A stretch of 64,000 nucleotides of DNA from Candidatus Azambacteria bacterium (lineage in GTDB: Bacteria; Patescibacteriota; Minisyncoccia; GWC2-36-17; WO2-46-25), in NCBI GenBank assembly GCA_016234725.1, contig JACRAK010000012.1, positions 10,619 to 74,618 of the forward strand. The letters run 5' to 3'. The notes beneath the pieces were generated by a model that saw only the letters and a list, made by a program, of their open reading frames with translations, ran no database searches and was not told the DNA's origin. The position numbers and the translations under genes are program-made. Shown piece by piece: positions 1 to 38,117 of this stretch; positions within the stretch are counted from its first letter, which is position 1, and each line of letters begins with the position of its first letter.

Positions 1-167
1 AAGAACAGCTGTGGCGCGTGAACCTTGAGTCCGGCAAGAAAGAAATGCTCTATGAATTTGCGGGTATAAGCTTTGACGCGGCCAGCCTCTTACTCTCGCC
101 GCAGGAAGACGTTCTTGTTTTTCTCAATAGAAAAGACGGGTTTCTCTACAGCGTGAAGCTTAAGTAG
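1..167 (+). CDS. 3' end of a gene entering from the left edge (C-terminal ...SPQEDVLVFLNRKDGFLYSVKLK*), beta-propeller-like hypothetical
   Basis: Open frame 3 from window edge to TAG at 165-167; too short for the ORF track; its last 60 bp are duplicated at 950-1010. Confidence 0.3.
   Translation, partial: EQLWRVNLESGKKEMLYEFAGISFDAASLLLSPQEDVLVFLNRKDGFLYSVKLK
107..167. repeat. Direct repeat copy 1 (3' end of left-edge gene)
   Basis: about 90% identical to 950-1010; both copies keep the frame DVLVF(L/F)xRKDGFLYSVxLK*. Confidence 0.6.
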
Positions 168-171
168 CCTT

Positions 172-200
172 AATCTTACGAGACTAAGTCTCATAAGATT
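172..200. repeat. REP-like hairpin (aatcttacgagact-a-agtctcataagatt) overlapping transposase stop
   Basis: 14-bp stem with 1 mismatch; core GAGACT-N-AGTCTC shared with 924-946 and 721-737. Confidence 0.6.
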
Positions 201-915
201 GTGCTTTTGAGCTATATTCCAATGATAGCTCTCTGATAGCTTCGCTGTCTATTTCTTGTAACCAATTAAACATACTCTTTTTGTGTTCTTCTGGTCCGCC
301 AAAGCAACTATGTAAGAAGCTTCGTGAAGTTACTGAGGGGAAGTTGTGTTTGCCGATATAGTCGGGATAACTGGACCACCGATAATTTTCCAAAAACTGC
401 ATTGCGTCCGCACGATCACCCACCTCTCCCTCTCTCCAGTTTGGAAACTTTAACGCAAAGGGATTTAAATGGAGGTAGTAGGGGAGGTGTATGAAATGAG
501 CCTCGCGCTCAACAAGAACGGCTTTGTATGTGCCTTGGAATAGGGCTCCGGTTCTTTGATACTTTTGGTTGAAGTATGTAGCATACCCCAATCCTACTTT
601 ATGCATAAATTTTGCAATACCTCCTTCCCGCCGCTGTCTCAAGAGCAGGTGAAAATGGTTTGGCATTAAAACAAAAGCCAAGATTTCAACGACCATATCT
701 CTTTTCCTTCGTTCTGATTTATGAGACTTAGTCTCATGAGATTGAAGAAAAGGTTTTTTGTAGTACAAATTAGTTGCGGGCAGACTATCATTAAACTCAA
801 ACAGATCGTGAATGAAGCGAAAATGATCGCTGTCATCCATATAAATATCACGCTTTTCTACGCCGCGATTATAGATATGGTAAATTTCTTCTTCTTCGAA
901 TTTTATTTTTCTCAT
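184..915 (-). CDS. IS200/IS605-family HuH (Y1) transposase, REP-associated tyrosine transposase-like
   Basis: 243 aa; HuH motif LMPNHFHLL; C-terminal GALFQGTYKAVLVE...YLHLNP typical of the PF01797 family; flanked by palindromic hairpins. Confidence 0.7.
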   Translation of the reverse strand: MRKIKFEEEEIYHIYNRGVEKRDIYMDDSDHFRFIHDLFEFNDSLPATNLYYKKPFLQSHETKSHKSERRKRDMVVEILAFVLMPNHFHLLLRQRREGGIAKFMHKVGLGYATYFNQKYQRTGALFQGTYKAVLVEREAHFIHLPYYLHLNPFALKFPNWREGEVGDRADAMQFLENYRWSSYPDYIGKHNFPSVTSRSFLHSCFGGPEEHKKSMFNWLQEIDSEAIRELSLEYSSKAQSYET

Positions 916-923
916 ATTATCAT

Positions 924-946
924 CTTACGAGACTAAGTCTCGTAAA
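924..946. repeat. REP-like hairpin (cttacgagact-a-agtctcgtaa) 9 bp upstream of transposase start
   Basis: 10-11 bp stem, same core as 172-200. Confidence 0.6.
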
Positions 947-949
947 GTC

Positions 950-1010
950 AAGACGTTCTTGTTTTTTTCAGTAGAAAAGACGGCTTTCTCTACAGCGTAA
1001 CGCTTAAATA
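950..1010. repeat. Direct repeat copy 2 (duplicated 3' gene fragment) on far side of transposase
   Basis: see 107-167. Confidence 0.6.
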
Positions 1011-2443
1011 AGCTCCCGGGAGGGGCGCATGATCTGCCGCAACACGCGCAGGTCTTCTTGCGTGACGCCTTTGAGCGCATACAGCGCTCCCGCATACACA
1101 AGCACTCCAAGCGCCGTAAGGAACAAAAAGCTCTGGGAAGGAGAAACAACAAGCGCGGCGGCCATCACCGCCGCCGCTCCACCCGCCTTCGCCAGCGCCC
1201 CGATACGCGGAAGATAGGCCGTTGCCCGATAAATGATAAAAAGCATGAGAGAGGACACCACAAGCTCTGTGGCGGCGGTTGTGGCGGCAGCGCCGACGTA
1301 CGAATACCGGGAAATAAGGTACAGGTTCGCAATGATGTTAAGCAGCGCGGCTCCTCCGTACACCCACATCACCCTTTTCTGTTCATGGATCGCGATGATC
1401 GTGCTTCCAAACAGCGCGCCGAAAAAAATAAATACGATCGCGACAAGTAATATCCGAAGCGGCAGTGCCGCTTCCTCAAACCCGCTCCCCGCAAGGATGC
1501 GGACGATGTCGGGAGCGAGATAGATCCCGCCCGCCGTAAGCGGCACCACGAGTATCGCCAGAAAATCGAATGTTTTTTGAAACACCGCGCGAAACATCGT
1601 TTTGTCCGCGGTGAAATATTTTGAAAGAAGCGGCATGACCAGCCCGACGAACATGATCGGAAAGAAAATGATGTTCTCAAGTATCTTATACGCGACGCCA
1701 TATACCCCCACCTCATGCGGCGCCTGTAAAAGCGACAGCAGCAGCGTATCGCCTTTGAAATACACGAGCACGAGCACCGCAGACACCGCCATCGGCCAGC
1801 TTTCTTTCAGCGTTCGCGCAAGCGCTTCTTTTCGGAACATGAGCGCAAAAGGGATCTGCCGCCGCACATACGACCACACGACAAAAAACTGCACGGCTCC
1901 CCCGAGGGTGAACACGAAAAGAAAGTGGAGGAAGCTTCCGCCGGCATAAAAAAGATACGCCGCCGCCGCAAGCTGCGTGACCCGCGCGGCAATATCGGCA
2001 AGCGCGGGGATGGCTGTTTTGAGGTGCTTTTGAAACACCCCCATGAGCACCGCAGAAAGCGACTGGAACGCAAACCCAAGCGCCGCGACCACTACCCCCC
2101 ATTTCACCGCAGCGCTATACGGCATGAACGAAACCACCGCGAAAGAAAGCGCCATGGACGCGCCCAAAAGAAAAAGGCGCGTTGAGAAAATAACGGATAC
2201 GACCTTTGCCTCATCTGCGTCCGGCTTGGCGATCTCCCGCGCAAGAAAGGGGTACAGGCCGAAGTCCGCACACACCGAAAAAATATAGAGGAACGCGAGA
2301 ACCGTGCTGTACGCGCCAAATCCGTCCGTCCCGATGGTTCGCGTGATCAGCGCGACGGAAACGACCCCGAGCGCTCCCGCCGCAAACCTCCCGCCAAACG
2401 AGATAAGAAAGTTCTGCGCTATCTTTTTTTTGAGCTCGCTCAT
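1004..2443 (-). CDS. Polysaccharide/oligosaccharide flippase (Wzx-like, MOP superfamily) membrane protein
   Basis: 479 aa, many TM helices, Gly/Ala-rich hydrophobic pattern typical of Wzx/MurJ-type flippases. Confidence 0.5.
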   Translation of the reverse strand: MSELKKKIAQNFLISFGGRFAAGALGVVSVALITRTIGTDGFGAYSTVLAFLYIFSVCADFGLYPFLAREIAKPDADEAKVVSVIFSTRLFLLGASMALSFAVVSFMPYSAAVKWGVVVAALGFAFQSLSAVLMGVFQKHLKTAIPALADIAARVTQLAAAAYLFYAGGSFLHFLFVFTLGGAVQFFVVWSYVRRQIPFALMFRKEALARTLKESWPMAVSAVLVLVYFKGDTLLLSLLQAPHEVGVYGVAYKILENIIFFPIMFVGLVMPLLSKYFTADKTMFRAVFQKTFDFLAILVVPLTAGGIYLAPDIVRILAGSGFEEAALPLRILLVAIVFIFFGALFGSTIIAIHEQKRVMWVYGGAALLNIIANLYLISRYSYVGAAATTAATELVVSSLMLFIIYRATAYLPRIGALAKAGGAAAVMAAALVVSPSQSFLFLTALGVLVYAGALYALKGVTQEDLRVLRQIMRPSRELI

Positions 2444-3676: not shown

Positions 3677-4011
3677 ACCCTTACGTCCTTTGTTTATTTT
3701 TTATATACTGTACGAAGCGAATTATACGAGGATTCGCGTATAAAAGTCAACCCCGTTACAAGCTTATATGAGGCATTCTTTATGTATTGACGCAAGCCGT
3801 AAGGCGGCTTCGCCTTGGCGCTCACATTAAGAAGAAAATCGTCGACGAGCTTGTAACGGGGTCAACAACACAGGAGCGGGGAAATAAGGGAAGTGCACAC
3901 GATATCCACATCATATCAACAGAAATTGTTCTTTTTCTCCTTGTTTTGCCCATTTCTGGAAATCTTTCCCAGGTGGTATACTTTGGGAAGATTTCTTTCG
4001 CCGCGGGATTT
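3677..4011. promoter_or_regulatory. rpmH<->dnaA divergent intergenic region with DnaA box and inverted repeats (oriC part / dnaA promoter)
   Basis: tATCCACAt at 3903-3911; 14-bp inverted repeat accccgttacaagc (3750-3763)/(3849-3862); extended -10 TGgTATACT about 3978-3986. Confidence 0.45.
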
Positions 4012-5379
4012 ATGGAACACACCGAGCTCTGGCAACACGTGCTTTCCGAGGTTGAGCTGAGCGTATCGAAGGCAAGCTTCAATACCTGGTTTCAGCACAC
4101 CGGGATCCAGTCCAAACAGGATGGCGTTGTTTTTATTTCCGTTCCTAACTCTTTCGCGAAAGAGTGGCTGGAGAATAAATTCAACAAGTTCATCCTGAAG
4201 TCGCTTCGCACCATTTCTTCCGAAGTAAAAGACGTTAAATTCGTGATTGCCGCGTCGCCATCGCCGCTCACCCCGCAAAAAACGAAAAAGAAAAAAGAAG
4301 AGGAGGAAAAAGAGATCGCTCTCGACAATCAGTTTGAGTTTGCCGGCGTAGACGCCGAAACCAACTTAAACAGCAAGTACACATTCGATGAATTCGTCGT
4401 CGGCTCGTCAAACGAGCTCGCGCACGCGGCCGCCATCTCCGTTACCAAAAACCTCGGCACGATATACAACCCTTTGTTCGTGTACGGAGGAGTGGGGGCG
4501 GGGAAAACGCACCTCATTCAGGCGATCGGCAACGAAGTGCTGAAAATGCATAAGGGGAAGAAGGTAAAATATGTCTCTTCCGAGAAGTTCACGAACGAAC
4601 TCGTGAACGCGATCCAAAACAGGAGTATGGAGCGATTCAAAGAGGACTATAGGCAAAACGATGTCCTTATCATCGACGACGTCCAATTCCTTGCCGGCAA
4701 AGACAAAACGCAGGAAGAATTTTTTCACACATTCAATGCGCTGTACGAGAAGAACAAACAAATCATCATAAGCTCTGACCGCCCGCCGAAAGCGATCCCT
4801 ACGCTCGAAGACCGCCTGCAATCGCGCTTTGAAGGAGGGATGATCGCAGACATCGGCTATCCGGACTACGAAACGCGCCTCGCTATATTAAAAAACAAGA
4901 TTATTAAAAAACAGGTTGTGCTTTCCGACGACATTGTTGAATTTATCGCAAATAATTTTCAAAAGAACCTCCGCGAACTTGAAGGAGCGCTCAATAAGGT
5001 GCTTGTCCACATGAAAATAGCAAAAAACCCGCTTTCAGTGGAAGAAGTGAAAAAGATATTGTATCCGTCTATCCATACGCCAAAAAAGAACATCAATGTA
5101 AAACAAATAATCCAGGCGGTCGCGAATTTTTACGGCGTACAAGAAAAACAGCTTATTATCAAAACAAGAAAGCAGGAGATCGTGAAGCCGCGTCAGATCA
5201 TTATGTATTTGCTGCGAGAGGAATTTAAGTTTTCCTACCCTTCTATCGGCAGCAAGATAGGGGGCCGCGACCACACCACTGTTATGCACGCGTGCGAGAA
5301 AATAGAAGGACAATTAAAAGAAGACGAGTCGCTTATAGAAGAGCTTAATCTTATTAAAAAAATTGTGTATAACGCATAG
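4012..5379 (+). CDS. dnaA: Chromosomal replication initiator DnaA
   Basis: Start chosen at MEHTELWQHVLSE (canonical DnaA N-term); Walker A GGVGAGKTHL; C-terminal DNA-binding domain. Confidence 0.9.
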   Translation: MEHTELWQHVLSEVELSVSKASFNTWFQHTGIQSKQDGVVFISVPNSFAKEWLENKFNKFILKSLRTISSEVKDVKFVIAASPSPLTPQKTKKKKEEEEKEIALDNQFEFAGVDAETNLNSKYTFDEFVVGSSNELAHAAAISVTKNLGTIYNPLFVYGGVGAGKTHLIQAIGNEVLKMHKGKKVKYVSSEKFTNELVNAIQNRSMERFKEDYRQNDVLIIDDVQFLAGKDKTQEEFFHTFNALYEKNKQIIISSDRPPKAIPTLEDRLQSRFEGGMIADIGYPDYETRLAILKNKIIKKQVVLSDDIVEFIANNFQKNLRELEGALNKVLVHMKIAKNPLSVEEVKKILYPSIHTPKKNINVKQIIQAVANFYGVQEKQLIIKTRKQEIVKPRQIIMYLLREEFKFSYPSIGSKIGGRDHTTVMHACEKIEGQLKEDESLIEELNLIKKIVYNA

Positions 5380-5584
5380 GATAACAAAAGGATAACGCGT
5401 GCATAAAACCGGTGTTTTAAAAAAGATGTTTTTATCCCCCTTTTTTCCACCGCACTATCTCCTTGTTTTCCCCACTATTGCCAACATGAAAAACATACAC
5501 ACCGCCTGTCTCTATCCTTATTATCCCCACTTTTTCACCCTTTAATTATAACTATAAATTTTTCTTTTTATTTATATATTTATT
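5380..5584. promoter_or_regulatory. Candidate oriC (DnaA-box cluster plus AT-rich unwinding element) between dnaA and dnaN
   Basis: Several TTATCCMCA-like boxes (ggataac x2, ttatccccc, tttccaccg, ttatcccca) followed by an almost pure AT 30-mer at about 5555-5584. Confidence 0.5.
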
Positions 5585-6688
5585 ATGCGGATAATCTGTT
5601 TGCAAGAAAATTTAAAAAATAATCTTCTTACTCTTGAAAGGATCTCTTCTAAAAACCAAGAACTTCCTATTTTAGGAAATGTGCTGTTAAAAACAGAAGA
5701 AGGATTTTTAAAAGCGTTTGCCACTGATCTCGAAATCGGGGTGGAGATCGCTATTCCGTGCAAGATAGAAAAAAAGGGGGAAGCGGTGGTGCCGATCAAA
5801 CTTATAGCGGGATTTATTGCGAATCTTCCCAACACAAAACTCACCTTGGAAGAAAAAAACAATGCAATAGTCATAGAAACGGAAGGGGTCACCACGACCA
5901 TTCCCGCCGCGAATAAAAATGAATTTCCCATCGTCCCGAAAATAAAAGAAGAGAATATGATAACGATGAGCGGCGAGGCGCTGCGAGGCGGGATCGCTCA
6001 GGTGATAAATTCCGCAGCGATCTCGTATACGATCCCGGAGATCGCGGGAGTGTTGTTCGTATGCGGCGCGGACGTAGTGAAGATCGTGGCGACAGATAGT
6101 TTTCGGCTCTCGGAAAAAACACTATTTAAAACCAAAGAGTATGCGATAAAAAAAGAACAGTCATTCATCCTTCCGGCAAAAACCGCAGCCGAACTTTCAA
6201 AAATAATAACCCCCGAAGATGAGATCGTGGAAATATACCTCGCGCAAAACCAAGTACTGTTCAAATTAAAACACGCTACGATCGTGTCGCGGTTAGTGGC
6301 CGGAGAATATCCGAAGTATGAGCGGATCATTCCCAAAACAAGCACGACAAAGATAGCGCTCAATAAAACCGAATTTATTTCAAAACTAAAACTCGCAAGC
6401 CTGTTTTCGTCAAAAATTAACGATGTGAAACTGGACATCCGCGCCAATAAAAACGAAATGGAGCTCACGGCGGCAGACCAGGCAAAAGGGAATTTTTCTG
6501 CAACGATACGCGCAGACATGACCGGAGAAAGCGCCGAAGCACTGTTTAATTATAAATACCTCCTAGACGGACTTTCCAATATCAGCGAAGAGGAGATCGT
6601 GTTCGAGGTGAACGGAGCGGCTTCGCCCGCGATCCTGAAAACAAAGAACGACACATACCAATACGTGGCGATGCCGATAAAAATGTAA
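5585..6688 (+). CDS. dnaN: DNA polymerase III beta sliding clamp
   Basis: 367 aa, three-domain clamp pattern, position after dnaA. Confidence 0.9.
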   Translation: MRIICLQENLKNNLLTLERISSKNQELPILGNVLLKTEEGFLKAFATDLEIGVEIAIPCKIEKKGEAVVPIKLIAGFIANLPNTKLTLEEKNNAIVIETEGVTTTIPAANKNEFPIVPKIKEENMITMSGEALRGGIAQVINSAAISYTIPEIAGVLFVCGADVVKIVATDSFRLSEKTLFKTKEYAIKKEQSFILPAKTAAELSKIITPEDEIVEIYLAQNQVLFKLKHATIVSRLVAGEYPKYERIIPKTSTTKIALNKTEFISKLKLASLFSSKINDVKLDIRANKNEMELTAADQAKGNFSATIRADMTGESAEALFNYKYLLDGLSNISEEEIVFEVNGAASPAILKTKNDTYQYVAMPIKM

Positions 6689-14602: not shown

Positions 14603-14632
14603 AAAAAGACGGCATTTGATTGCCGTCTTTTT
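14603..14632. terminator. Bidirectional intrinsic terminator (aaaaagacggca-tttgat-tgccgtcttttt)
   Basis: Perfect GC-rich stem flanked by A-run and T-run; near-identical copy at 21817-21848. Confidence 0.6.
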
Positions 14633-21816: not shown

Positions 21817-21848
21817 CCATATCTAGAAAAAAGACGGCATTTGATTGC
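21817..21848. terminator. Bidirectional terminator hairpin, near-copy of 14603-14632
   Basis: aaaaaagacggca-tttgat-tgccgcctttttt. Confidence 0.5.
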
Positions 21849-21871
21849 CGCCTTTTTTGCCGATGATTCTC

Positions 21872-21950
21872 TATTTCGCTGCCGTCAGTCACTTTTTGTA
21901 GCGGGGGAGTGCGCCGGAAACTATCTGCGCATATGTTTCTCGGAGGTGTT
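21872..21950. repeat. Conserved about 75-bp noncoding element, copy A
   Basis: about 88% identical to 24551-24624 (…cactttttgtagcgggggagt…ccggaaactatctg…atatgtttctcg.aggtgt.tggtc). Confidence 0.55.
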
Positions 21951-22080
21951 TGGTCATCGGACCTTCTTTTTGCTTGTTAAATACAACGCCGTCGATTTTC
22001 CCGATGCCGTTCACTTCCACCGCAGTGCCGCAAAAAACGCTTCATCGAATTTTTTATAGTAAGAAAAATAAAAACCCCGG

Positions 22081-22821
22081 CTAATGAGCCGGGGTTTTTA
22101 TTAATTCAATTACCTTATCAAGAAAGAGGGTAAAATTTTGCTTTGTTTTCTTATGCTTCTTGTATAATTGCAAGACTTTTTGTCTTATTTCTTTGTGACC
22201 ATAATAGCCGCGGTCAGGAAGATAAAGAAATTCGGAAAGATCCTCGTTTAGCAAAACTGTTAAAATTTCTTTTAGGTCCCCGACCTGTTTCTCGCCCAAT
22301 CCTTTTTCATTACAATAACCGCTATATCTTTTTAAAAATTCTATATGCATGATCTCGTGCGATGCTGTATTGGGGAAATCGCTAAATTGATTAAACATGA
22401 AGCTGTTCTTTCCAAAAGGAATTCTTTTCCCGAAGGTAAAATAAGCGCGATATTCTTTTTCAAATTCTTTAAGAGGAATATCTAGCATTTTTGAAAGACC
22501 TAAAAGGCATTCCTTGCCTGCTTCACCCCATCTTTTTTCTGCTCTTGCTGATATGTCTTTTATAATATGCGTTGCTTTGGGTGTTTTTAAGAATTTATCA
22601 AGAACCTTTTCTATTTTAGGAAGAATTTTTTCTTCGGAATCTGTTTTTTCAGCGAGTAATTCAATTTCCTGAGGAATGCCGCCCAAATCCCATTTTTTAT
22701 GCCCGCCGGCATCATACGATATATTTTTGACACATGAATCAACCCAATTTTTTAATTCCCAATCCTTATTAAATTCAAGTGTGATTTTAGGGAATAAGTT
22801 CTTTTTTGAGGCATTTTTCAT
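22081..22821 (-). CDS. HExxH-motif putative metallopeptidase (paralog, module A)
   Basis: Start set at MKNASKK; TASHEIMHIEF … ILTVLLNEDL, homologous to 28265 protein (TAMHEIMHIFF … MTVLLNLWF). Confidence 0.45.
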   Translation of the reverse strand: MKNASKKNLFPKITLEFNKDWELKNWVDSCVKNISYDAGGHKKWDLGGIPQEIELLAEKTDSEEKILPKIEKVLDKFLKTPKATHIIKDISARAEKRWGEAGKECLLGLSKMLDIPLKEFEKEYRAYFTFGKRIPFGKNSFMFNQFSDFPNTASHEIMHIEFLKRYSGYCNEKGLGEKQVGDLKEILTVLLNEDLSEFLYLPDRGYYGHKEIRQKVLQLYKKHKKTKQNFTLFLDKVIELIKTPAH

Positions 22822-22854
22822 GCGTTTAAAATACCATAAAAAGAGAAAATGCGC

Positions 22855-22890
22855 TAGCCTATTTAGGCTAGCGCATTTTGAGGCCGGAGA
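22855..22890 (-). terminator. Intrinsic terminator after peptide A (gcgctagccta-aat-aggctagcgc + U-rich)
   Basis: Perfect 10-bp stem immediately after peptide stop. Confidence 0.55.
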
Positions 22891-22894
22891 AGCG

Positions 22895-23026
22895 TTAATA
22901 ATCAGTGCAGCAGTCTCCGTCAGGACAGTCGCAGTCACTACACTGACTCGTGCAATCGAGCAAGGTCTTGCTGGCGACTTCTGATTCAGCAAGAACCAAA
23001 ACTCGATTTTTATCTGTTGTTCCCAT
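22895..23026 (-). CDS. Cys-rich RiPP precursor candidate A (43 aa, six Cys; SCIFF/ranthipeptide-like)
   Basis: Manual ORF MGTTDKNRVLVLAESEVASKTLLDCTSQCSDCDCPDGDCCTDY*; perfect SD aaggaggtgatc; ATG directly abuts the rSAM stop. Confidence 0.6.
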   Translation of the reverse strand: MGTTDKNRVLVLAESEVASKTLLDCTSQCSDCDCPDGDCCTDY

Positions 23027-24115
23027 TTAGATCACCTCCTTTGTTTTGACATGCCCCCAAATTAACTGTAAGGCTTTAAGTTCAATTAATCGTGGAATCA
23101 TGATCTTAAAGAGTTTGCAGTATGGGGAAGAAGTGGTGGCTAGGTCATGAGCTCCAAAATTGATGACGGGACATCCGCCCCCACAAACAAGAGACCACTG
23201 GCAATCTTGACAGCCCTTGTAATCAAGCACATCTTTTGAATGTAGTTCGGGAAAAGTGTCTTGAGACCACGCCATTTCCAAAAAGGTTTTCTTGGTTTCA
23301 AGATTGCCTATCGGCTTTTTATCCATCCTTGCCTGGCAAACAAATACATTGCCGTTATGATCAACGGCTACGCCGGAATGGCCAAGATTGCACCCTCGTA
23401 AATGAGGCTTCCTATCGAGATGAATCTCGCACAGCTGTTGCGCGGCAACGGCGCTATGATTACGAATTGCAAGAGCGTAATAATCATAGCAATCATTAAG
23501 GGCGCTCGAAGCTTTTTTCATAAAGTCTTCGTATCCCTTAAAATCTCCTACATTATCCCGATATAGACCATAACGAAACGGAATGCTTGCATCAATCAAA
23601 AAACGGCTCAGCATAGGCACGCCGGAAATATTTCTATCCGTTATGGTTGTTAGTATCGTCGGGCGGACATCATTCCCCATGCATAAGTTCAGATTTTTGG
23701 CCACGACATCAAAAGAACCGGTGCCAGCGCCGAAGAAGCGTGTTTTGTTGTGCCACTCACCTAAACCATCTAACGACATACAGACCCTCACCGAGTTATC
23801 TTTAATCATCTTTATTAGATTAAGATCGAGCAGAGTCCCGTTTGTCAGTAAGATTAATTTAGCGCGAATACCTTTTTCTACGAATCGTTTCTGAGTCTGT
23901 TCGATCAAAAAATTAATCAACGTTTTATGCAGCGTGGGCTCTCCTCCAGCAAGACGTATTGTTACTAGGTCCAGACCGTGATGGCTTACAGTTTGTTCAA
24001 GCTTATCCAGATATAAGCTTGCTGTCTGAAAAGACATGAACTTTTTGTCCTTATTTATATAACAGTAAGGACATTTTAAATTACAGCAGTTGGCTATATG
24101 GAGCCATGTGCTCAT
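23027..24115 (-). CDS. Radical SAM/SPASM-domain peptide maturase A
   Basis: CNLKCPYC (CxxxCxxC) and C-terminal SPASM CQDCQWSLVCGGGC; start at MSTWLH (upstream TTG extension possible). Confidence 0.7.
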   Translation of the reverse strand: MSTWLHIANCCNLKCPYCYINKDKKFMSFQTASLYLDKLEQTVSHHGLDLVTIRLAGGEPTLHKTLINFLIEQTQKRFVEKGIRAKLILLTNGTLLDLNLIKMIKDNSVRVCMSLDGLGEWHNKTRFFGAGTGSFDVVAKNLNLCMGNDVRPTILTTITDRNISGVPMLSRFLIDASIPFRYGLYRDNVGDFKGYEDFMKKASSALNDCYDYYALAIRNHSAVAAQQLCEIHLDRKPHLRGCNLGHSGVAVDHNGNVFVCQARMDKKPIGNLETKKTFLEMAWSQDTFPELHSKDVLDYKGCQDCQWSLVCGGGCPVINFGAHDLATTSSPYCKLFKIMIPRLIELKALQLIWGHVKTKEVI

Positions 24116-24185
24116 GCCCTTAACATTGTTTTTTTCTAGACTAGGTCTAAACAGCGGAGCATCTTTTGGTTGAATAAGTCCGTTT

Positions 24186-24491
24186 TCAAGCAGAAGTTTT
24201 ATCCGTGGCAAATCTTTCTCGGTCTGAAAAAGGGACAGATTGTCTATAAAGAAGCTTAGTTCTCATGTCGAGCAGGACCACGCCTCTTTTGCTTCCAGGG
24301 ACAAGCGCATAACCATAGCCGTCTACTTCTCCTGTGTAACAATTACCCGTCTTTTTATATGCCTCTATTTCCCTCATTTTCTTTCCTCCGTAGGTTTTAT
24401 GATGTTGTAAAAGATCTTTTCGTATTTGTCTTTCTAATAACATAACAATAGCGTTTTTGTCAAATTCTTCATAAGAAGGGTTACTAATCAA
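24186..24491 (-). CDS. Hypothetical 101-aa protein upstream of rSAM A (non-ATG start)
   Basis: ORF with TTG start and no SD; possibly an accessory/RRE-like protein or not expressed. Confidence 0.2.
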   Translation of the reverse strand: MISNPSYEEFDKNAIVMLLERQIRKDLLQHHKTYGGKKMREIEAYKKTGNCYTGEVDGYGYALVPGSKRGVVLLDMRTKLLYRQSVPFSDRERFATDKTSA

Positions 24492-24502
24492 TAAAAATGA
24501 AA

Positions 24503-24529
24503 AACTCCCTTTCTAAGGAGTTTTTCTTG
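24503..24529. terminator. Bidirectional terminator hairpin (aaaaactccc-tttctaa-gggagttttt)
   Basis: Perfect stem with flanking A/T runs; followed by repeat copy B. Confidence 0.5.
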
Positions 24530-24550
24530 GTTCGCGTTTTTACTGTACAA

Positions 24551-24624
24551 CCGTCAACCACTTTTTGTAGCGGGGGAGTTTGCCGGAAACTATCTGGGTA
24601 TATGTTTCTCGCAGGTGTCTGGTC
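24551..24624. repeat. Conserved about 75-bp noncoding element, copy B
   Basis: see 21872-21950. Confidence 0.55.
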
Positions 24625-24686
24625 GTGGATCGGTAAGCATTGTAAATAAAAGACCTTTTGTGTAGGATACAAGCGAAAGGAAAACC

Positions 24687-25400
24687 ATGATCCCACGACT
24701 TGTCCAGCAAATCACCTATTGGCCGATATACCTCTTTTTTAAAGTGTTTTTTTGTTTTCGCGTGGAAGGACAGGAGAATCTGAAAGGACTGGAAGACAAG
24801 CCGGTTATTTTTGCGTCAAACCATGCAAGCTTTCTCGATGGTCCCATGTGTGCAGTGGCGATGCCGCGGGAAGGAATCGTACCAAAAAAGTTTTTTGCCA
24901 TGCGGTTTCTTGTCGCAAAAGAAGCGTTCGCGTTGGTAAAAAACGTCGTTCCGTTTCCCATATCTATAATCTTTGCGATCTATGTGCGTATGAATGGGGG
25001 CGTTCCCGTGGTGAGAGGCATGAACAATATTCAAAAAAATCTTGAGGAAGCAGTGAGGATACTTAGCAAGGGAACAAAAATGTGGATTTTCCCGGAAGGG
25101 AAACTGTCAAAAGACGGAACGCTTCAAAAAGGGAAGCGGGGCGTTGCCTATTTGCATCAAGCAACTAGCGCGGCTATTGTGCCGGTAGGGCTTATCGGCA
25201 CGTGTCGCATGCCTTCACAATTTTTTCGTTTCCAGCGTCCGTGCGTGACGGTGCGCATTGGCTTGCCAATGCATATTCCCGAAGGCGTTTCCTTGGAAGA
25301 GGGGACGGACATGATAATGAAGGAAATAGGACTGCTTCTTAGTGGCATGGCCACTTCATTGACCACGGCACGCGTAGAAAAAGCGCCATCAGCGATTTAA
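24687..25400 (+). CDS. plsC: 1-acyl-sn-glycerol-3-phosphate acyltransferase (PlsC family)
   Basis: NHASFLDG (HX4D) and FPEG motifs; putative promoter TTGTAA-17-TAGGAT at 24638-24666. Confidence 0.7.
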   Translation: MIPRLVQQITYWPIYLFFKVFFCFRVEGQENLKGLEDKPVIFASNHASFLDGPMCAVAMPREGIVPKKFFAMRFLVAKEAFALVKNVVPFPISIIFAIYVRMNGGVPVVRGMNNIQKNLEEAVRILSKGTKMWIFPEGKLSKDGTLQKGKRGVAYLHQATSAAIVPVGLIGTCRMPSQFFRFQRPCVTVRIGLPMHIPEGVSLEEGTDMIMKEIGLLLSGMATSLTTARVEKAPSAI

Positions 25401-25419
25401 ATTAGAAAATAAAAAGGCG

Positions 25420-25455
25420 GCGTAGGCGATAATTGAATCGCCGCCTTTTTATTTT
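25420..25455. terminator. Bidirectional terminator (aaaaaggcggcg…cgccgccttttt)
   Basis: GC stem with A/T flanks after plsC. Confidence 0.55.
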
Positions 25456-25465
25456 AGAATAACTC

Positions 25466-25561
25466 CACCCTCTTTTGTTTTTTGCCGACAGGATCAGAAA
25501 AACCGGGCGTGGCGGAAGTTATGGCGGAAAGCTTTGAAAAATAAAGGTTTTTTGGTATCAT
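25466..25561 (+). promoter_or_regulatory. Conserved regulatory element copy 1 (GGCGGAA-N5-GGCGGAA direct repeat + TTGAAA-N17-TATCAT promoter)
   Basis: Shares the core (a)tc(t/a)gaaaaaccgggcgtggcggaagttatggcggaaa(a/g)ctttgaaaaataaa with copies 2 and 3. Confidence 0.6.
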
Positions 25562-25567
25562 GAAAAC

Positions 25568-26587
25568 ATGAAGCTACGATTTATAACATCAAAAATAGAG
25601 AATCAATTCTTCTTTATCGCGAATCTTTCTGAATGGCATTTTTCATGTCGATTAGATTATAACCAGGCGTGGATCGAGGAAACAGGAGCATTGAGCAATG
25701 AAGAGAAAAGGAAGCTCAAAGTCTTCGCAAGTATCTTGCAGAAACATGGATTTACTTACGATAAGAATGGAAAAACAAAATACATCGGTAAATATTTTTA
25801 TTGTTATTCGGAGGAAAAAGCATGGGAAGAATTGGGAAAAAATATTACCAAAAAAGAGGCCCTAAGAATAAAAAATGTTTTTAAGATTTTTGAACCACGA
25901 TTTGAAAAAACATGGAACCCGCAAGAGCTCGCGGCAAGAGTAAAAACAATACAAAGTTTTACAAAAGAAAAAAGATGGAAGGAGCTCGTGCAGCGCGTAA
26001 ATATATTATTTGGGGGGCCTGCCATAACAAAAAAGATTTTTATTGTTGTCTTGATTTCTCCTCTGGCAGGAGAAGGAGTGACGGCTGCCGGTAGCGCAAA
26101 TAACGGAGATCAATGCATAACATACGAGATTCCCAAATTAAAAAATGGAGGGTGGGAGCGTGATTATTCTATGGGAGTTTTAGCTCACGAGATCGCTCAC
26201 GCGTTGTTTTCTAAAAAAGGCGGCGAAAAAGAGATTGCAAAGATTATTAAAAAAGAAAATATTCCTGCGCATATAAAAGGATTCCCCACGAGCGCTGTTT
26301 CTGTGATTAACGAGGCCATTACAGAGAGCTTTATTCCCCTCGGCTACCTTGGTCAAAAATATGCTGGGAGAGACCTCGCTCCGTTATTGTTAGATAATAG
26401 CGATAAAGGATGGCTCACAGAAGAAAAGACAAAGAAAGAGAGAGGAATTAATTACCGCAATATAAGAAAATATCTTATCTGGCAATTGTATCCTCTTGCT
26501 GTTATATATGGACGACAAAGTAAATCCATCGATGCATATTTTATCAGGCAGGCAGTATTATTACTGAAAAATGCGCTCGGCAAATAA
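25568..26587 (+). CDS. HExxH-motif putative metallopeptidase (paralog, module B)
   Basis: 339 aa; GVLAHEIAHALF … VINEAITESF. Confidence 0.4.
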   Translation: MKLRFITSKIENQFFFIANLSEWHFSCRLDYNQAWIEETGALSNEEKRKLKVFASILQKHGFTYDKNGKTKYIGKYFYCYSEEKAWEELGKNITKKEALRIKNVFKIFEPRFEKTWNPQELAARVKTIQSFTKEKRWKELVQRVNILFGGPAITKKIFIVVLISPLAGEGVTAAGSANNGDQCITYEIPKLKNGGWERDYSMGVLAHEIAHALFSKKGGEKEIAKIIKKENIPAHIKGFPTSAVSVINEAITESFIPLGYLGQKYAGRDLAPLLLDNSDKGWLTEEKTKKERGINYRNIRKYLIWQLYPLAVIYGRQSKSIDAYFIRQAVLLLKNALGK

Positions 26588-26601
26588 AAAAAAGGCAACC
26601 G

Positions 26602-27681
26602 TTAGGGTGCCTGTGGTATTGCCGATGCTTTTTGGAGAAAAAGCTTGATGTAGTCGAACATCCTTTTTCTTGTCTCGCAAAAAGGGTAGTCTCCGCCATA
26701 GTTTCCTGTCGCCCAGTAGGAGTCGGCTCTGCATCCGCCACGACAAATTGCTACATATTCGCAACGGCCGCATTTTTCAGCATTGTGATTGCTTCTTATT
26801 TCAGCGAGCGCCTTAGTTTTTGATCCCGCTAAAGCATTGATCAGTGATTGGCTGAGGATGTTACCAAGCATAAACCTCTCTTCCACCAATGAACCACAGG
26901 GAACGATGTTTCCTTCTTGATCAATGGTGATCATTTTCTTTAAGCAAGAGTTAGCAAAGGAGCACCCTCTCGGTCTCTGGCCAAGAAGCGAGCGCATCAT
27001 TGTGTCGAGCGGCTCGATTGAGGGAAAAGAGTTTTCCGTATGCGCCCAAAGATCGAATACGTCCTTATAGAAAGCAAACATTTCATCGTTTGAGGGCATT
27101 ATCGGTCTTTCTGAAAGTGGCACGCTTTTTAGAGGCAGCAAGCCAAATGAGTTCACGCCGAGAGCTTCATAGAAATGAAATATCTCTTTGGCGCGAGAAA
27201 CATTTAGTTTACTTATAACAGAAAGAACACCAAGAGGCATGCCAGTCGCTTTTATTTCTGCGCAAGTTCTTAATAGCGCACTTATATCAGAGCGGCGATG
27301 AGCTATGTATACATCTGTTGGCGCATCAAGACTAATCCCCACATGGAAATCATTCTTTTGAAGAAAATCAATCCACGAGGCATCCAGCAAGAGGCCGTTT
27401 GTTTGGATGTTGTTGTGATATACAATGCCTCTTTTTTCCGTTTCCTCCTTCTGGGCATTTATTACTTCTTGATAAAAATTTTTACCAACAAGAAGCGGTT
27501 CGCCGCCATGCCAGCAGAACTCGACACTGTCAAAGCCGATGGAGGCATTATGAATCATAACCCTGATGTTTTTTATCTCGAACTTTTTTATGTTTCTTCG
27601 AGAGGCGCGTGAGTAACAATACACGCACTGAATGTTGCAGTCAGATCCCGTGATCATGATGATCGTCATGGCTTTCTTCAT
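26602..27681 (-). CDS. Radical SAM/SPASM-domain peptide maturase B
   Basis: CNIQCVYC and SPASM CGRCEYVAICRGGC. Confidence 0.7.
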   Translation of the reverse strand: MKKAMTIIMITGSDCNIQCVYCYSRASRRNIKKFEIKNIRVMIHNASIGFDSVEFCWHGGEPLLVGKNFYQEVINAQKEETEKRGIVYHNNIQTNGLLLDASWIDFLQKNDFHVGISLDAPTDVYIAHRRSDISALLRTCAEIKATGMPLGVLSVISKLNVSRAKEIFHFYEALGVNSFGLLPLKSVPLSERPIMPSNDEMFAFYKDVFDLWAHTENSFPSIEPLDTMMRSLLGQRPRGCSFANSCLKKMITIDQEGNIVPCGSLVEERFMLGNILSQSLINALAGSKTKALAEIRSNHNAEKCGRCEYVAICRGGCRADSYWATGNYGGDYPFCETRKRMFDYIKLFLQKASAIPQAP

Positions 27682-27756
27682 AAAATTCGCTCCCGTGTTT
27701 TTTTGAATGCGGATGTGGAGGGAGGGGGTATTTACTACCCCCTCCTGTTCGAGCTA

Positions 27757-27939
27757 TTACTTGGTGCTGGCGTCGCGATAATGATCGTGCGACGGTTGAT
27801 CGACCCAGTGATCGTGTTTCATGCTCAGCGAGTCACCGTTTTTAATCTTGGCAGTCGCTTGAGTAATGATCTTTTGCACGGGTCCGGATATGCAGACGCC
27901 TGACATATCCTTAACATGACTATCGATTCCGCGTTCCAT
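27757..27939 (-). CDS. 60-aa candidate precursor peptide B (His/aromatic-rich C-terminus)
   Basis: SD aaggagggtaaat-ATG; MERGIDSHVKDMSGVCISGPVQKIITQATAKIKNGDSLSMKHDHWVDQPSHDHYRDASTK; hairpin GGAGGGGG…CCCCCTCC between it and rSAM B. Confidence 0.45.
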   Translation of the reverse strand: MERGIDSHVKDMSGVCISGPVQKIITQATAKIKNGDSLSMKHDHWVDQPSHDHYRDASTK

Positions 27940-28100
27940 ATTTACCCTCCTTTCTTTGAGTTTTCAGCCCATTAGATGGCTGAAATTGGGGTTTCCATTA
28001 ACGAAATTATTAAAGGACATAACAAGCGCATATATACGCTTTTCCCTTTATGATGTCAACGCCCTGTGTATGCCGCGCCCTGTATGACACTGTATGGCAA

Positions 28101-28238
28101 GTTTAAGAAACTACGCAACCACTCAAAACATATTTTATCACCCAACAACCCCATTGTTTTTAAAGATAATCTGAAAAACCGGGCGTGGCGGAAGTTATGG
28201 CGGAAAACTTTGAAAAATAAAATTGTTTTTGATATGAT
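28101..28238. promoter_or_regulatory. Conserved regulatory element copy 2 between divergent promoters (rSAM-B operon on - ; HExxH c on +)
   Basis: about 125 bp about 90% identical to copy 3; -35 TTGAAA 28210-28215, -10 TATGAT 28233-28238; minus-strand TTGACA-17-TATATA at about 28020-28050. Confidence 0.6.
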
Positions 28239-28264
28239 GGAGAGGGAAATTAAACAAAGAAACA

Positions 28265-28978
28265 ATGAGCACCCCGCGTGTTATATTTTCTTACAATCAG
28301 GAAAAAGATATCAAAAACATTCAAATTGGACTTGATACTGTGAGTCGCGGCAGACAACCAGATAGAGAGCTTGTACAAATTATCCAGCAATACGGCAGCG
28401 CGCCATCAGAAGAAGACATCAAGGAATATTTAATTTCTCGATGGAAGAATAAAAGGGGTGTCCCTGACCTTATCGTAAAACAACTCCAAGAATATTGGGA
28501 CACAATAGAAGAAAAATATTTTAATCATCTTGCAGATCGAATGCAGCTCACGTCCTTTCATGGAATTAAACAGCTAGGCGGTTTTTTAAGTGTGCGTTAC
28601 GGAAGCGGTTATAATACTGAACAACAATGGTTTGCGGTAAGTGTGTATAATAGCACCCTAAAGAACACATTAACGGCAATGCATGAGATCATGCATATTT
28701 TTTTTCATAAACAATGGTGGGATTTTTGCAAAAAACAAGGATTGCCCGATAACAATATATGGGATGTAAAAGAATCAATGACGGTGCTTTTAAATTTGTG
28801 GTTTAAAAATCAGGTTATTGATACTGATTGGGGATATGATGAGCACGCCGAGCTTCGCCGTTTCATTATAGATTGGTTTTTGGAAACGAGAGATTTTAAA
28901 AAAACATTGGAAAGGGCGTGTATATATATGAAAGAACACTCAGAAAAAAGCCCTGATTGGATAACCAATCAGGGCTAG
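28265..28978 (+). CDS. HExxH-motif putative metallopeptidase (paralog, module C)
   Basis: 237 aa; TAMHEIMHIFFHK … ESMTVLLNLWF. Confidence 0.45.
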   Translation: MSTPRVIFSYNQEKDIKNIQIGLDTVSRGRQPDRELVQIIQQYGSAPSEEDIKEYLISRWKNKRGVPDLIVKQLQEYWDTIEEKYFNHLADRMQLTSFHGIKQLGGFLSVRYGSGYNTEQQWFAVSVYNSTLKNTLTAMHEIMHIFFHKQWWDFCKKQGLPDNNIWDVKESMTVLLNLWFKNQVIDTDWGYDEHAELRRFIIDWFLETRDFKKTLERACIYMKEHSEKSPDWITNQG

Positions 28979-29002
28979 TTTGCTGATGTAAAACACCAGC
29001 TT

Positions 29003-29155
29003 TTAGGAGCCATCGCAGCCGTCTGTGCCGCCGTGACATCCTGACTGGCATACGTTGCAGCCGCTGTTGTCACAGGTGCCACCGCTGTTGTCGCATGCGG
29101 CTAGTACGGTAGTAGCCGACGATCCTTCAATGAGCGAAGAAAAAGCGAGCTTCAT
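29003..29155 (-). CDS. Cys-rich RiPP precursor candidate C (50 aa, seven Cys)
   Basis: Manual ORF MKLAFSSLIEGSSATTVLAACDNSGGTCDNSGCNVCQSGCHGGTDGCDGS*; perfect SD aaggaggtgattg; downstream of rSAM C on same strand. Confidence 0.6.
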   Translation of the reverse strand: MKLAFSSLIEGSSATTVLAACDNSGGTCDNSGCNVCQSGCHGGTDGCDGS

Positions 29156-29226
29156 AACAATCACCTCCTTATTGGGAGTTTCTGTGTTTTGCTGACTCCT
29201 TCCCAGTGAGTAGCAAGTGGGGGTGT

Positions 29227-30534
29227 TTACACCACCAGCTCCAAAACATTTCTGCTGATAAGCTCGCTAAGAAAATGCAGATATTTTGCATTTTCCATAG
29301 AGATTTTATACATAGCGCGAAGAGATTTTGGAGTGAACGACAGTTTTTTGATGTGAATGTCTTCTATGAGATTCAGTGTCTCGTGCTCCACGAAGGTGTT
29401 TTTAATGCCACTCGTGTTGATTATCCCTAATGGTTCATCTCGGCGAAAGCGACAAGCTCTTCTTACGCGGAGCACCGTGTTGTTCTTAAGAAGCGCATGT
29501 GTTTTTGGAACCGCGCGTTTTTGAGCCATTTGTGCTCTCATGATCGAGTCTTCACCGTGAACATCGCCATTAAGGGAGGCGACTCGGCAGCCACCACCAC
29601 ACATAGCGACAAGCTTACAGGAAAGACAGGCCCGAGGAAGAAGAGATCCGTCACGCCACTGAACCATTTTTAACCAAATGGATTTCAAATCTTCAGTGGA
29701 AAGAGATCCATAAGCGATTTCGTGGTGGGGGCATGCGCGCACCGATCCATCTGAAGCAATGGCGATGGACGTTTTACCAGCAGAACAGGTTCGCTGACCA
29801 AGGAGGGAATAAGCATCGTCGTTGTCGAAAAAACAGATGGGGTAGGGAACGAGAGAGTCTAATTGCATGCCAGTGGTTTTCAGATCAAGTAGCTGGTCAA
29901 CAATTAAACCGACGCTTTTTATTGGAAGAGCGAGTTCCTTTGAAGACTGTTTGTTTGGTAAGCGCGGAGATGTAACGCGTGTCGCAGAAAATGCTACCAC
30001 CCCAAGCTTATGTGCAAACTCGCCAGTTTTTTTCACATCTAGCAGGTTTTGCTCCATTACAACCATATTTACAGCGGTGCGGATGCCGGCGGCATGAGCA
30101 CACTCAATACCCCGCACGATACGCTGAAAAGATCCTTTTGTGCCGGAAAGAGAATCGTGGGTATTGGAATCATACGATAAGAGCGATGTTAATATTGTTC
30201 GGAGTCCCACCGAAAAAAGCTCCTTTGCAATTTTTTCAGTAAGTAGAACAAGGTTTGAATTTAGGCTGAACGAGATTTTCCTCTTCGAAAGTTCCTTAAT
30301 GAGAAAAATAAGTTCGCCCTTATTTAGAAGTGGTTCTCCTCCTGTAAGTATGACGTGGAAAATCTTGTGGGCAGCAAGTTGCTCAGCAATTCGAATCGAC
30401 AACGCCTCCGAAATGCTTTTATTTGGAACTAATCCATCGTCTCGCCAAAAATTGTAGCAGTGGAAACATTTTTGGTTGCAGCCAGTATTGATTTCAACAT
30501 GAGCAGCTAGTGGAGCATCAAGCGTTTTATACAT
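29227..30534 (-). CDS. Radical SAM/SPASM-domain peptide maturase C with C-terminal PqqD-like (RRE-like) extension
   Basis: CNQKCFHC; SPASM CLSCKLVAMCGGGC; C-terminal about 110 aa …KKLSFTPKSLRAMYKISMENAKYLHFLSELISRNVLEL resembling PqqD/RRE; SD aaaaggaggctgtt. Confidence 0.7.
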   Translation of the reverse strand: MYKTLDAPLAAHVEINTGCNQKCFHCYNFWRDDGLVPNKSISEALSIRIAEQLAAHKIFHVILTGGEPLLNKGELIFLIKELSKRKISFSLNSNLVLLTEKIAKELFSVGLRTILTSLLSYDSNTHDSLSGTKGSFQRIVRGIECAHAAGIRTAVNMVVMEQNLLDVKKTGEFAHKLGVVAFSATRVTSPRLPNKQSSKELALPIKSVGLIVDQLLDLKTTGMQLDSLVPYPICFFDNDDAYSLLGQRTCSAGKTSIAIASDGSVRACPHHEIAYGSLSTEDLKSIWLKMVQWRDGSLLPRACLSCKLVAMCGGGCRVASLNGDVHGEDSIMRAQMAQKRAVPKTHALLKNNTVLRVRRACRFRRDEPLGIINTSGIKNTFVEHETLNLIEDIHIKKLSFTPKSLRAMYKISMENAKYLHFLSELISRNVLELVV

Positions 30535-30646
30535 AACAGCCTCCTTTTGTTTTTAAAGCTCTTCCTCGACATATCAATAATGCACGAGGTTTATTAATAA
30601 AAACATTAATACATTTATATTAATTTGTCAATACATTATGGAGCGG

Positions 30647-30786
30647 TTTCAAGAAACTAACGCAACCCCTCAAAACATATTTTATCACTCACCAGCCCCC
30701 TTTGTTTTTTAAAGATAATCTGAAAAACCGGGCGTGGCGGAAGTTATGGCGGAAAACTTTGAAAAATAAAGGTTTTTTGGTATGAT
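30647..30786. promoter_or_regulatory. Conserved regulatory element copy 3 between divergent promoters (rSAM-C operon on - ; MTase/HK on +)
   Basis: Same 125-bp element; -35 TTGAAA 30759-30764, -10 TATGAT 30781-30786; minus-strand TTGACA-17-TAATGT about 30600-30630. Confidence 0.6.
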
Positions 30787-33882: not shown

Positions 33883-33924
33883 GTAGCATTGGTTATTTTA
33901 TAAAATAAAACCCATATTAAGTAT

Positions 33925-37314: not shown

Positions 37315-37379
37315 TAATTCCATCAAAAAAGCATTTATAAAAGAAACAGCGCAATAATTTTGTTATTGCGCTGTTAAAA

Positions 37380-37841: not shown

Positions 37842-37957
37842 GATCGCCTCCTTTATGTGTGACTAATTTTTTAAAGATCGTCTTACGTGCTACAATACCC
37901 CCAAACACCGAGGTCTGTCAATCATTAAAAACTGGAAAAGTTTATTAATACATCATT

Positions 37958-38082
37958 TCATCGTAAAAAAGATCATGGAAGCTCATGGCGGCACCGTGTG
38001 GGCGGAATCGGAAGGCGAAGGCAAGGGCTCGCAGTTTTATGTTTCCATCCCGCTTGCGGCAGTGCAGACGGTGGTGAAGTAA
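37958..38082 (+). pseudogene. Duplicated 3'-terminal fragment of the histidine kinase gene (copy of 33775-33882)
   Basis: about 97% nt identity to the HK C-terminal coding end (…MEAHGGTVWAESEGEGKGSQFYVSIP…); GC-rich island in AT-rich surroundings. Confidence 0.7.
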
Positions 38083-38117
38083 TAAAGGAGCACATGAAGT
38101 AATGAGGTCGTAGCAAA

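Follow-up and report, generated by a model that had tools for sequence, protein, structure and literature searches.

The 64,000-nt stretch of DNA analysed here (the window, to which all coordinates refer unless another locus is named) is part of contig JACRAK010000012.1 of a Candidatus Azambacteria bacterium (GCA_016234725.1), and close to its start a compact unit encoding a Y1 HUH protein lies between two convergent genes. The first of these, gene X, runs off the window start and encodes a protein of 376 aa, for which the NCBI annotation is WD40-repeat protein (Candidatus Azambacteria). Its last 20 codons and TAG stop (165–167) form copy A of a direct repeat (106–167, plus strand), as delimited from the open reading frame (ORF) list and the repeat alignment, and the copy A peptide, EDVLVFLNRKDGFLYSVKLK, agrees with the consensus of the gene X orthologs. 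Next, the inserted unit of ~780 bp (168–949, minus strand) comprises a promoter-like site, a 5' palindrome, an ORF with an in-frame palindrome and a 3' palindrome. It is followed by copy A' (950–1011, plus strand; repeat alignment), an orphan duplicate of the last 20 codons of gene X ending in a TAA stop (1009–1011), and by a flippase-type gene (Polysacc_synt; 1004–2443, minus strand), whose stop codon (1004–1006) and last two codons lie inside copy A'. The GC content of the inserted unit is 35–45%, compared with 52–62% in the flippase gene (1001–2400) and 47.7% in the window as a whole, and its outer end, ...AAGTCAA, is shared with two homologous loci, L009 and L010.

The gene within the unit (184–915, minus strand; ORF, Pfam, alignment and model) encodes a protein of 243 aa, which matches the Pfam family PF01797 (Y1_Tnp) with 33 bits against a cut-off of 23. 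The HUH motif H87-F88-H89, preceded by N86, is encoded by nt 649–660 and the tyrosine motif Y147-LHL-N151-P152 by nt 460–477; H87, H89, Y147, N151 and P152 are invariant among 55 homologues. An AlphaFold (AF2) model based on the alignment of these homologues is of moderate quality, with a predicted local distance difference test (pLDDT) score of 71, and places the Y147 segment in a helix (139–150) after the HUH strand. Residues 49–69, the loop bearing the palindrome, are predicted to be disordered (pLDDT <50). The top Foldseek matches of the model are 4ER8, the Escherichia coli TnpA-REP protein with a repetitive extragenic palindromic (REP) hairpin, followed by 2XM3 and 2A6M, the TnpA proteins of ISDra2 and IS608, all with a probability of 1.00 and target-normalised TM scores of 0.55–0.67. 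A sequence-profile search of the PDB returned no match, the score against the NCBIfam equivalog NF047646 (REP_Tyr_transpos) is 36.2 bits and hence below its 80-bit cut-off, Pfam detects no C-terminal helix-turn-helix family in the protein, and the window contains no second Y1 gene. An earlier note on this DNA had described the gene as an IS200/IS605-like transposase of the REP-associated tyrosine transposase (RAYT) type. The RAYT part of this description holds insofar as the protein is a Y1 HUH enzyme of a RAYT-like branch, with a Y-x-x-x-N-P motif and 4ER8 as its best structural match, and falls short at the equivalog level (36 bits versus 80). Membership of IS200/IS605 is not borne out, given the Y-x-x-x-N-P motif, the symmetric palindromes, the single copy in the window and the 61-nt flanking repeat. 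The identity of the unit, with a Y1 HUH protein of the RAYT-like branch, is nearly certain.

Hairpins with the core GAGACT-N-AGTCTC had been reported at both ends of this gene together with a third, in-frame copy inside it, and all three are present. The 3' palindrome AATCTTACGAGACTAAGTCTCATAAGATT (172–200), found by palindrome scanning and folding, is 29 nt long with one mismatch and overlaps the stop codon, and the 5' palindrome CTTACGAGACTAAGTCTCGTAAG (924–946) is a perfect 23-nt palindrome that ends 8 nt before the ATG (913–915). The in-ORF palindrome is imperfect over 719–743 with a perfect 17-nt core at 721–737; it encodes S59-H-E-T-K-S-H-K66 and lies between beta-1/helix A and the HUH strand. 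The 64 kb contain exactly three instances of GAGACTNAGTCTC, at 180–192, 723–735 and 929–941, all inside the unit. By chance 0.07 are expected, and none of 100 shuffles reaches three; no further, solo copy is present anywhere in the window. As single-stranded DNA (ssDNA), the two terminal palindromes fold far better than their shuffled versions (z −5.6/−4.5 and −3.7/−3.1). The 3' palindrome begins 4 nt beyond the gene X stop and encodes the last residues of the transposase, Y-E-T, together with its stop codon, TAG, which is the reverse complement of 184–186 and whose T is the central base of the palindrome. In the internal palindrome the central base is A and a lysine is read instead of a stop. 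The same layout of the 3' palindrome is found in L006, L009 and L010, and throughout the sub-clade of the window the ORF runs into the 3' palindrome, with the central base setting the reading (T gives the TAG stop and A gives Lys). No intrinsic terminator was called at the 3' palindrome by a terminator scan, and no known RNA family was found in 1–1300. The earlier note had called these palindromes REP-like. The dispersal that the term REP implies is not seen in the 64-kb window, and solo copies are found only in other genomes of the candidate phyla radiation (CPR); unlike classical REPs, the palindromes have no GT[AG]G foot. A GTAG at 164–167, 4 nt from the foot of the palindrome, was considered as such a foot and discarded. 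It was created by two silent changes in copy A (AAA TAA to AAG TAG), GTAG is found once among the flanks counted across the family, and its presence here is probably coincidental.

The family to which the protein belongs has at least 4,381 detected homologues, mostly in Parcubacteria-type CPR genomes. A further 80 loci with 51–65% identity were fetched and scanned by script. The same three sites are present in L006 (69%, another Azambacteria metagenome-assembled genome (MAG)), L009 (87%) and L010 (79%), and a strong in-ORF palindrome, with stems of up to 18 bp, was detected in 63 of 81 loci. It most often lies 177 nt from the ATG, and one reading frame is shared by 57 of 65 copies. The in-ORF palindromes fall into 42 distinct cores, or sequence types, an example of a type other than that of the window being TACGAGGCTAAGCCTCGTA, and the core of a given locus recurs upstream of its own ATG in 51/55 and at its stop in 45/54 loci, whereas foreign cores match the flanks in 1.1–1.2% of trials. 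On both flanks, the cognate palindrome is found in 40/51 loci. When 49 distinct in-ORF copies are aligned, changes on both sides of the stem are seen at 10 of 12 stem pairs, with 122 compensated cells compared with 33 in shuffles (0/500). Stem pairing extends to 92% of cells versus 30–45% when the partner column is slid, although the windows for this covariation analysis were picked for palindromy, which inflates the percentage paired and counts against taking it at face value; this choice does not affect the common position, the common frame or the match to the flanks. The palindromes are read as peptides as different as SYETKSHK, SYEAKPRK, SYEVQLRK, KEVGLPKI and YIDLRSQY, and as the core sequence differs by locus and yet matches the flanks of that locus, the peptide follows the DNA palindrome. 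The palindrome sits in a clade-specific insert of ~40 aa, which is absent from proteobacterial plasmid homologues. The idea that the in-ORF palindrome is a local oddity was dropped, as it is conserved and co-varies across the family; that a triple palindrome exists family-wide, with its copies changing together between loci, is nearly certain.

The 5' palindrome is enclosed by a promoter-like site detected by a promoter scan, TTGACT-18 nt-TAAGAT (922–951, minus strand), the TTGACT of which is kept in L006, L009, L010, L011, L012 and L022. Across the family, a −10-like hexamer is found between the palindrome and the ATG in 47/52 loci, where 24 are expected; it most often ends 7 nt ahead of the start codon. 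The palindrome centre, most often 21 nt upstream of the hexamer, is at the −35 position, and the palindrome covers the −35/spacer region. This spacing suggests near-leaderless transcripts and an operator-like 5' copy.

Both the palindrome and the whole unit bear signs of mobility. Extra in-frame cognate copies are present elsewhere in the Y1 ORF in L022 and L023 (nt 513), L057 (nt 472) and L039 (nt 711), and the extra copy in L022 is a 39-nt insert giving a second encoding of QKQSYEVKPRKIE, which implies that the ~39-nt palindrome unit itself moves. The palindrome type of the window is also found as solo intergenic copies with no adjacent gene in other CPR MAGs, including a Saccharibacteria bin, and for other palindrome types eight solo copies were counted in 206 kb of flanking DNA, about one per 26 kb. 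A comparison with related genomes lacking the insertion, which the earlier note had proposed, shows the whole unit to be missing at L091–L098, L101 and L105–L106. At the empty sites L091–L095 and L101, the gene X ortholog (83–87% aa identity) and the flippase gene overlap tail to tail by 8 nt with no Y1 gene, and at L096–L098 and L105–L106 they are separated by a 17-nt spacer, again with no Y1 gene. Beside the gene X orthologs P0124, P0125 and P0126, no Y1 gene was seen either, on contigs that are short or carry another insert resembling a miniature inverted-repeat transposable element (MITE). Close Y1 homologues, such as L006 and L010, are located in unrelated contexts. Could the gene instead be a domesticated, immobile housekeeping gene of the RAYT type, inherited vertically with its flanks while the palindromes alone move? 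The single copy in the 64-kb window and the tyrosine motif Y-x-x-x-N-P would fit this, as would an identical protein, P0039, which was seen in the same genomic context at all 10 places shown, with 24 contigs read. In one variant of the P0039 locus a diverged second paralogue is present, and each of the two has a palindrome type of its own, as is the case for RAYTs. However, at least four related lineages lack the 780-bp unit at the orthologous site, with breakpoints at the palindromes, the close homologues L006 and L010 lie in unrelated contexts, the GC content of the unit is below that of its surroundings and few or no dispersed palindromes are present in this genome as scanned over the 64-kb window. 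We therefore regard an immobile gene as unlikely, and the behaviour of the unit is intermediate between that of an insertion sequence and that of a resident RAYT. Locus L108 (1896–3702 of that locus) contains two diverged tandem Y1 paralogues with different palindrome types, and the second gene has a 5' palindrome of the GAGACT type, as in the window, with in-ORF and 3' copies of the GAGGCT type.

A duplication of ~60 bp of the gene end with ~90% identity and preserved frame had been noticed at this locus, and it is indeed found as a direct repeat of 61 nt (106–166 and 950–1010) with 90% identity, or 62 nt with seven differences when counted through the stops. Both copies are in the gene X frame and each ends in a stop codon (TAG at 165–167 and TAA at 1009–1011). 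An assembly artefact was dismissed, as the copies differ at seven positions and a separate Logan assembly (SRR12113407, L008) is identical over 6,915 nt including both copies. Equally, the duplication is no family-wide footprint, since a long flanking repeat is found only in the window, at 1 of the 45 loci for which both flanks were available; its flanking repeat score is 43 compared with a shuffled maximum of 10, and L040 shows just a displaced 20-nt repeat. Copy A' and the flippase gene reproduce the ancestral 8-nt overlap exactly (stops at 1009–1011 and 1004–1006), which places copy A' at the original position and the unit with copy A upstream of it. With the two genes originally overlapping by 8 nt, no simple insertion spares both, and a duplicated gene end is the sole viable product. 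The 61-nt repeat is a consequence of the target site, the 8-nt overlap of convergent genes, and not a footprint of transposition. When the changes in each copy are polarised against five gene X orthologs, three changes are peculiar to copy A (GTG, AAG and TAG), each of them silent and two of them within the 8 nt freed from the overlap. Four are peculiar to copy A', and three of these are non-synonymous, replacing residues that every ortholog conserves (L to F, N to S and K to T). Copies A and A' also share one base (column 14) seen in none of the five orthologs. In the reading that we favour, the gene end would have been duplicated in place at the time of insertion, after which copy A would have stayed under selection and copy A' would have decayed outside the 8 nt that the flippase gene still uses; this in-place origin is much less certain than the identity of the unit. 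A MITE-like element of 122 nt, with terminal inverted repeats CTTCGCATTACGAAGTGCC...GGCATTTTGTAATGCGAAG and a duplication of ~8 nt over the stop region, is located at the same gene X/flippase junction in L104 (4132–4253) and L107 (4129–4250), and in L099 at 1852–1890. With insertions of this kind, the junction is an insertion hot spot at which duplication recurs as the solution.

A different route to the duplication deserves appreciable weight, though we hold it to be improbable on balance: copy A was carried in with the element from a donor that already had the unit downstream of gene X. The element may have taken the last 61 nt along through use of a surrogate cleavage site in gene X or as a circular intermediate. 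Integration at the same position, whether enzymatic or by one crossover inside the 61 nt, may then have replaced the gene end and left the resident one as copy A'. Such a transfer would account for a right junction exactly at the element end of L009 and L010 (...AAGTCAA|), for the presence of a related element (87% aa identity) at the same junction in another lineage, where the flanking flippase proteins are only 82% identical, and for the low GC content of the element, and it would make do without target duplication, which is not known for Y1 enzymes. It also finds a parallel at the histidine kinase (HK) locus of the window (31705–38100), where the last 95 nt of a histidine kinase gene are duplicated (33772–33866 and 37957–38051, 96% identity). 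The HK repeat brackets a 4.1-kb block of low GC content (30–37%) with genes for a GFO/IDH/MocA oxidoreductase, a DegT aminotransferase, a NUDIX protein, a thymidylate-kinase-like protein and a GreA-like protein, and with no transposase, integrase or Y1 gene. All four differences between the HK copies are at synonymous third-codon positions, as expected of two functional alleles of which one arrived with incoming DNA, and the orphan copy continues to a different C-terminal tail; together these points suggest replacement of the gene end by incoming DNA rather than a decayed local duplicate. The proposal that the duplication at the Y1 gene is the same signature as that at the HK locus does not hold in terms of cause, as there is no Y1 gene near the HK duplication and a transposase is not shared by the two. 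Against a carried-in copy A stand the column 14 base, shared by A and A' and found in none of the five orthologs, the three non-synonymous changes in A', which would still need decay after insertion, and the fact that no donor with this arrangement was recovered, the L009 sequence ending at the hairpin. Moreover, linear integration anchored by homology would not easily leave a duplication.

Taken as a whole, we consider it fairly probable that 168–949 is a compact REPtron-like unit of a TnpA-Y1 clade abundant in CPR bacteria, with the roles proposed below for its palindromes and with the in-place duplication of the gene end described above. A dimeric protein would recognise the palindrome, probably as an ssDNA hairpin, as E. 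coli TnpA-REP and IS608 TnpA do, and would cut and rejoin DNA at the palindrome, thereby defining the ends of the unit and occasionally seeding solo copies. The 5' palindrome may double as an operator through which the protein limits its own transcription, while the 3' palindrome would end both the ORF and the transcript. The in-ORF copy may have begun as an in-frame palindrome insertion into a disordered surface loop and may have been kept matched to the outer copies as it is also a binding or processing site. We infer these roles of the individual copies, and they are much less certain than the identity of the unit or the triple palindrome. Going further, we tentatively hypothesize that all three built-in sites, in the promoter, in the in-frame loop and at the stop, are functional and evolve in concert with the specificity of the enzyme, and that the in-ORF site allows the enzyme to sense or process its own gene or transcript, although we would not bet on it. 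If so, the in-ORF site would serve self-limitation, or the gene would be mobilised as two REPIN-like halves, and such a self-targeting arrangement has not been described for any RAYT or IS200 element.

Several observations weigh against this reading of the unit as a whole. On the basis of homology only, this protein is presumed to bind and cleave the palindrome. In the window, the −10 match is weak (TAAGAT, 4/6) and the whole promoter-like site matches at 9/12 positions, and the internal palindrome is short (17 nt) and by itself not significantly stable (z −1.9/−1.3). Among the homologous loci, the centre-base orientation of the three copies is not fixed, the four combinations being seen 9, 14, 10 and 10 times, and 4-mers counted within 10 nt of each foot, in the palindrome copies outside coding sequence, gave no conserved foot tetranucleotide, with GTAG once, GTGG three times and no positional conservation. 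The lack of both a fixed orientation and a foot tetranucleotide indicates that the recognised object is symmetric; this symmetry and the absence of a GT[AG]G foot appear unlike every Y1 substrate studied and would equally suit a double-stranded operator. About 6–8 loci have matching flanking palindromes and no in-ORF copy, so that the internal palindrome is not indispensable. As regards the duplication, copies A and A' (seven differences) are no closer to each other than copy A is to the ortholog at L100 (seven differences), so that an in-place origin is not proven, the L009 homologue (87% identity) adjoins a flippase ortholog without copy A', and we know of no mechanism for a 61-nt target duplication by a Y1 enzyme.

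The perfect symmetry of the palindromes and the absence of an orientation rule would also be expected if they were ordinary DNA or RNA signals, namely the operator of another regulator and a terminator, and if the in-ORF copy were a neutral passenger whose similarity is due to gene conversion from the flanks alone. The overlap of the 5' copy with a promoter-like site, the loci at which the in-ORF copy is missing and the internal copy of the window being the weakest of the three fit this as well. However, the 42 palindrome types follow the Y1 gene and not the host genome, the solo and the extra in-frame copies indicate mobility, 63 of 81 diverged loci keep the in-ORF palindrome, with stems of up to 18 bp, at the same place and in the same frame, as a neutral passenger would not, and the solved structure closest to the model is that of a nuclease that binds hairpins. 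Hence, we consider ordinary signals very unlikely and keep to a REPtron-like unit with cognate palindromes.

The REPtron-like unit shares features with several known systems. As in the E. coli TnpA-REP/REPtron system (4ER8; Nunvar 2010, PMC2817692; Messing 2012, PMC3479197), a Y1 HUH protein with a Y-x-x-x-N-P motif is encoded by a gene with its own palindromes on either side, and palindrome types differ from one paralogue to the next. In contrast to that system, the unit scores 36 bits versus 80, lacks a GT[AG]G foot, has perfectly symmetric palindromes and a ~40-aa extra loop with an in-frame palindrome, and shows presence/absence at orthologous sites, whereas no high-copy dispersal of the palindrome is seen in the 64-kb window scanned. 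The closest protein motifs are those of TnpAY1 subclass 2.1, namely NHFH, FQ (LFQG) in place of W, YLHLNP and WSS (RWSSY), with L where the Y[IV]HLNP motif of the subclass has I or V, and the length of 243 aa is near the reported median of 238. Subclass 2.1 corresponds to the Group 1 RAYTs, or TIRYTs (Quentin 2018, PMC6006769; Bertels 2017, PMC5581495; Di Nocera 2013, PMC3733652), and no REP-like sequences were reported near its genes (Quentin 2018, PMC6006769), unlike the unit described here with its cognate palindrome flanks. TIRYTs carry GGGGWSAS inverted repeats, of which none are seen in the flanks of the unit, and the C-terminal HTH-like domain expected of this group is not detected by Pfam either. 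A cognate palindrome within the gene itself, with the frame intact and in a peripheral loop, is shared with TnpAY1 subclass 2.4 (Group 4 RAYTs; Quentin 2018, PMC6006769). In the present family, however, this copy lies upstream of the HuH motif, mostly ~177 nt from the ATG and in one frame, and co-varies with both flanks, and the hosts are CPR bacteria rather than the Cyanobacteria or Bacteroidetes of subclass 2.4. With IS200/IS605 elements such as IS608 and ISDra2, the unit shares the Y1 fold, hairpins at both ends and its nature as a discrete unit missing from empty sites. These elements are characterised by Y-x-x-x-Q, asymmetric subterminal hairpins, a guide tetranucleotide, several near-identical copies and no target duplication, whereas the unit has Y-x-x-x-N-P, no tnpB, symmetric palindromes and a 61-nt flanking duplication. 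Finally, Rickettsia palindromic elements (RPEs) and in-frame REPs (cited in PMC3733652) are palindromic repeats tolerated in a protein loop as well, but both reside in unrelated host genes and are unmatched to sites flanking those genes.

Each single feature of the unit therefore has a precedent, be it REPtron flanks, flank repeats overlapping ORF ends (Di Nocera 2013, PMC3733652), in-frame REPs or the Rickettsia elements. In the literature searched, where absence is no proof of novelty, we found no description of a subclass 2.1-like CPR clade with cognate palindromes, of a largely fixed in-ORF palindrome position upstream of the HuH motif, of three copies varying in concert across dozens of types or of sites that are fully symmetric and have no GT[AG]G foot, and a search on RAYTs and Patescibacteria jointly returned nothing relevant. 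The function of RAYT-type enzymes and the way in which they are matched to their palindromes are an open question in the field. The CPR clade offers compact units of ~780 bp with a cognate site in the promoter, in the coding sequence and at the stop, and the 42 palindrome types in about 80 loci constitute natural specificity variants with which recognition, autoregulation and co-evolution could be tested. Part of the protein sequence (Y-E-x-K-x-R-K and variants) is dictated by the DNA palindrome and not by protein function. The locus also illustrates how an insertion into overlapping convergent genes can be made tolerable by duplication of a gene end, a case that helps to interpret similar signatures of a duplicated 3' end elsewhere.

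Further features were noted in and around the window. Upstream of gene X and outside the window (L008, 8000–12732), gene X closes a conserved gene block, which includes genes for a VirB4/TraG-like P-loop ATPase (DUF87) and a TraC-like protein and is syntenic in all relatives examined. Repeats are found among radical-SAM/SPASM-like genes at 21882–30778, with a 73-nt segment present three times (25481, 28157 and 30706) and further repeats of 74 nt and 49 nt (21882/24551 and 28113/30660), and look like repeated cassette boundaries or short gene ends. The 30-nt palindrome AAAAAGACGGCATTTGATTGCCGTCTTTTT occurs twice, at 14603–14632 and 21828–21857, 7.2 kb apart; it is terminator-like and may represent another dispersed hairpin family. 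The two 32-nt arms of an inverted repeat at 55931–56048 are 97% complementary and enclose 54 nt. An AT-rich stretch at 5400–5700 (GC 27–33%), directly after dnaA (3787–5379) and with dnaN next in L008, is probably the replication origin, and if the origin is indeed located at ~5.4–5.7 kb, the sense strand of the Y1 gene would be the lagging-strand template.

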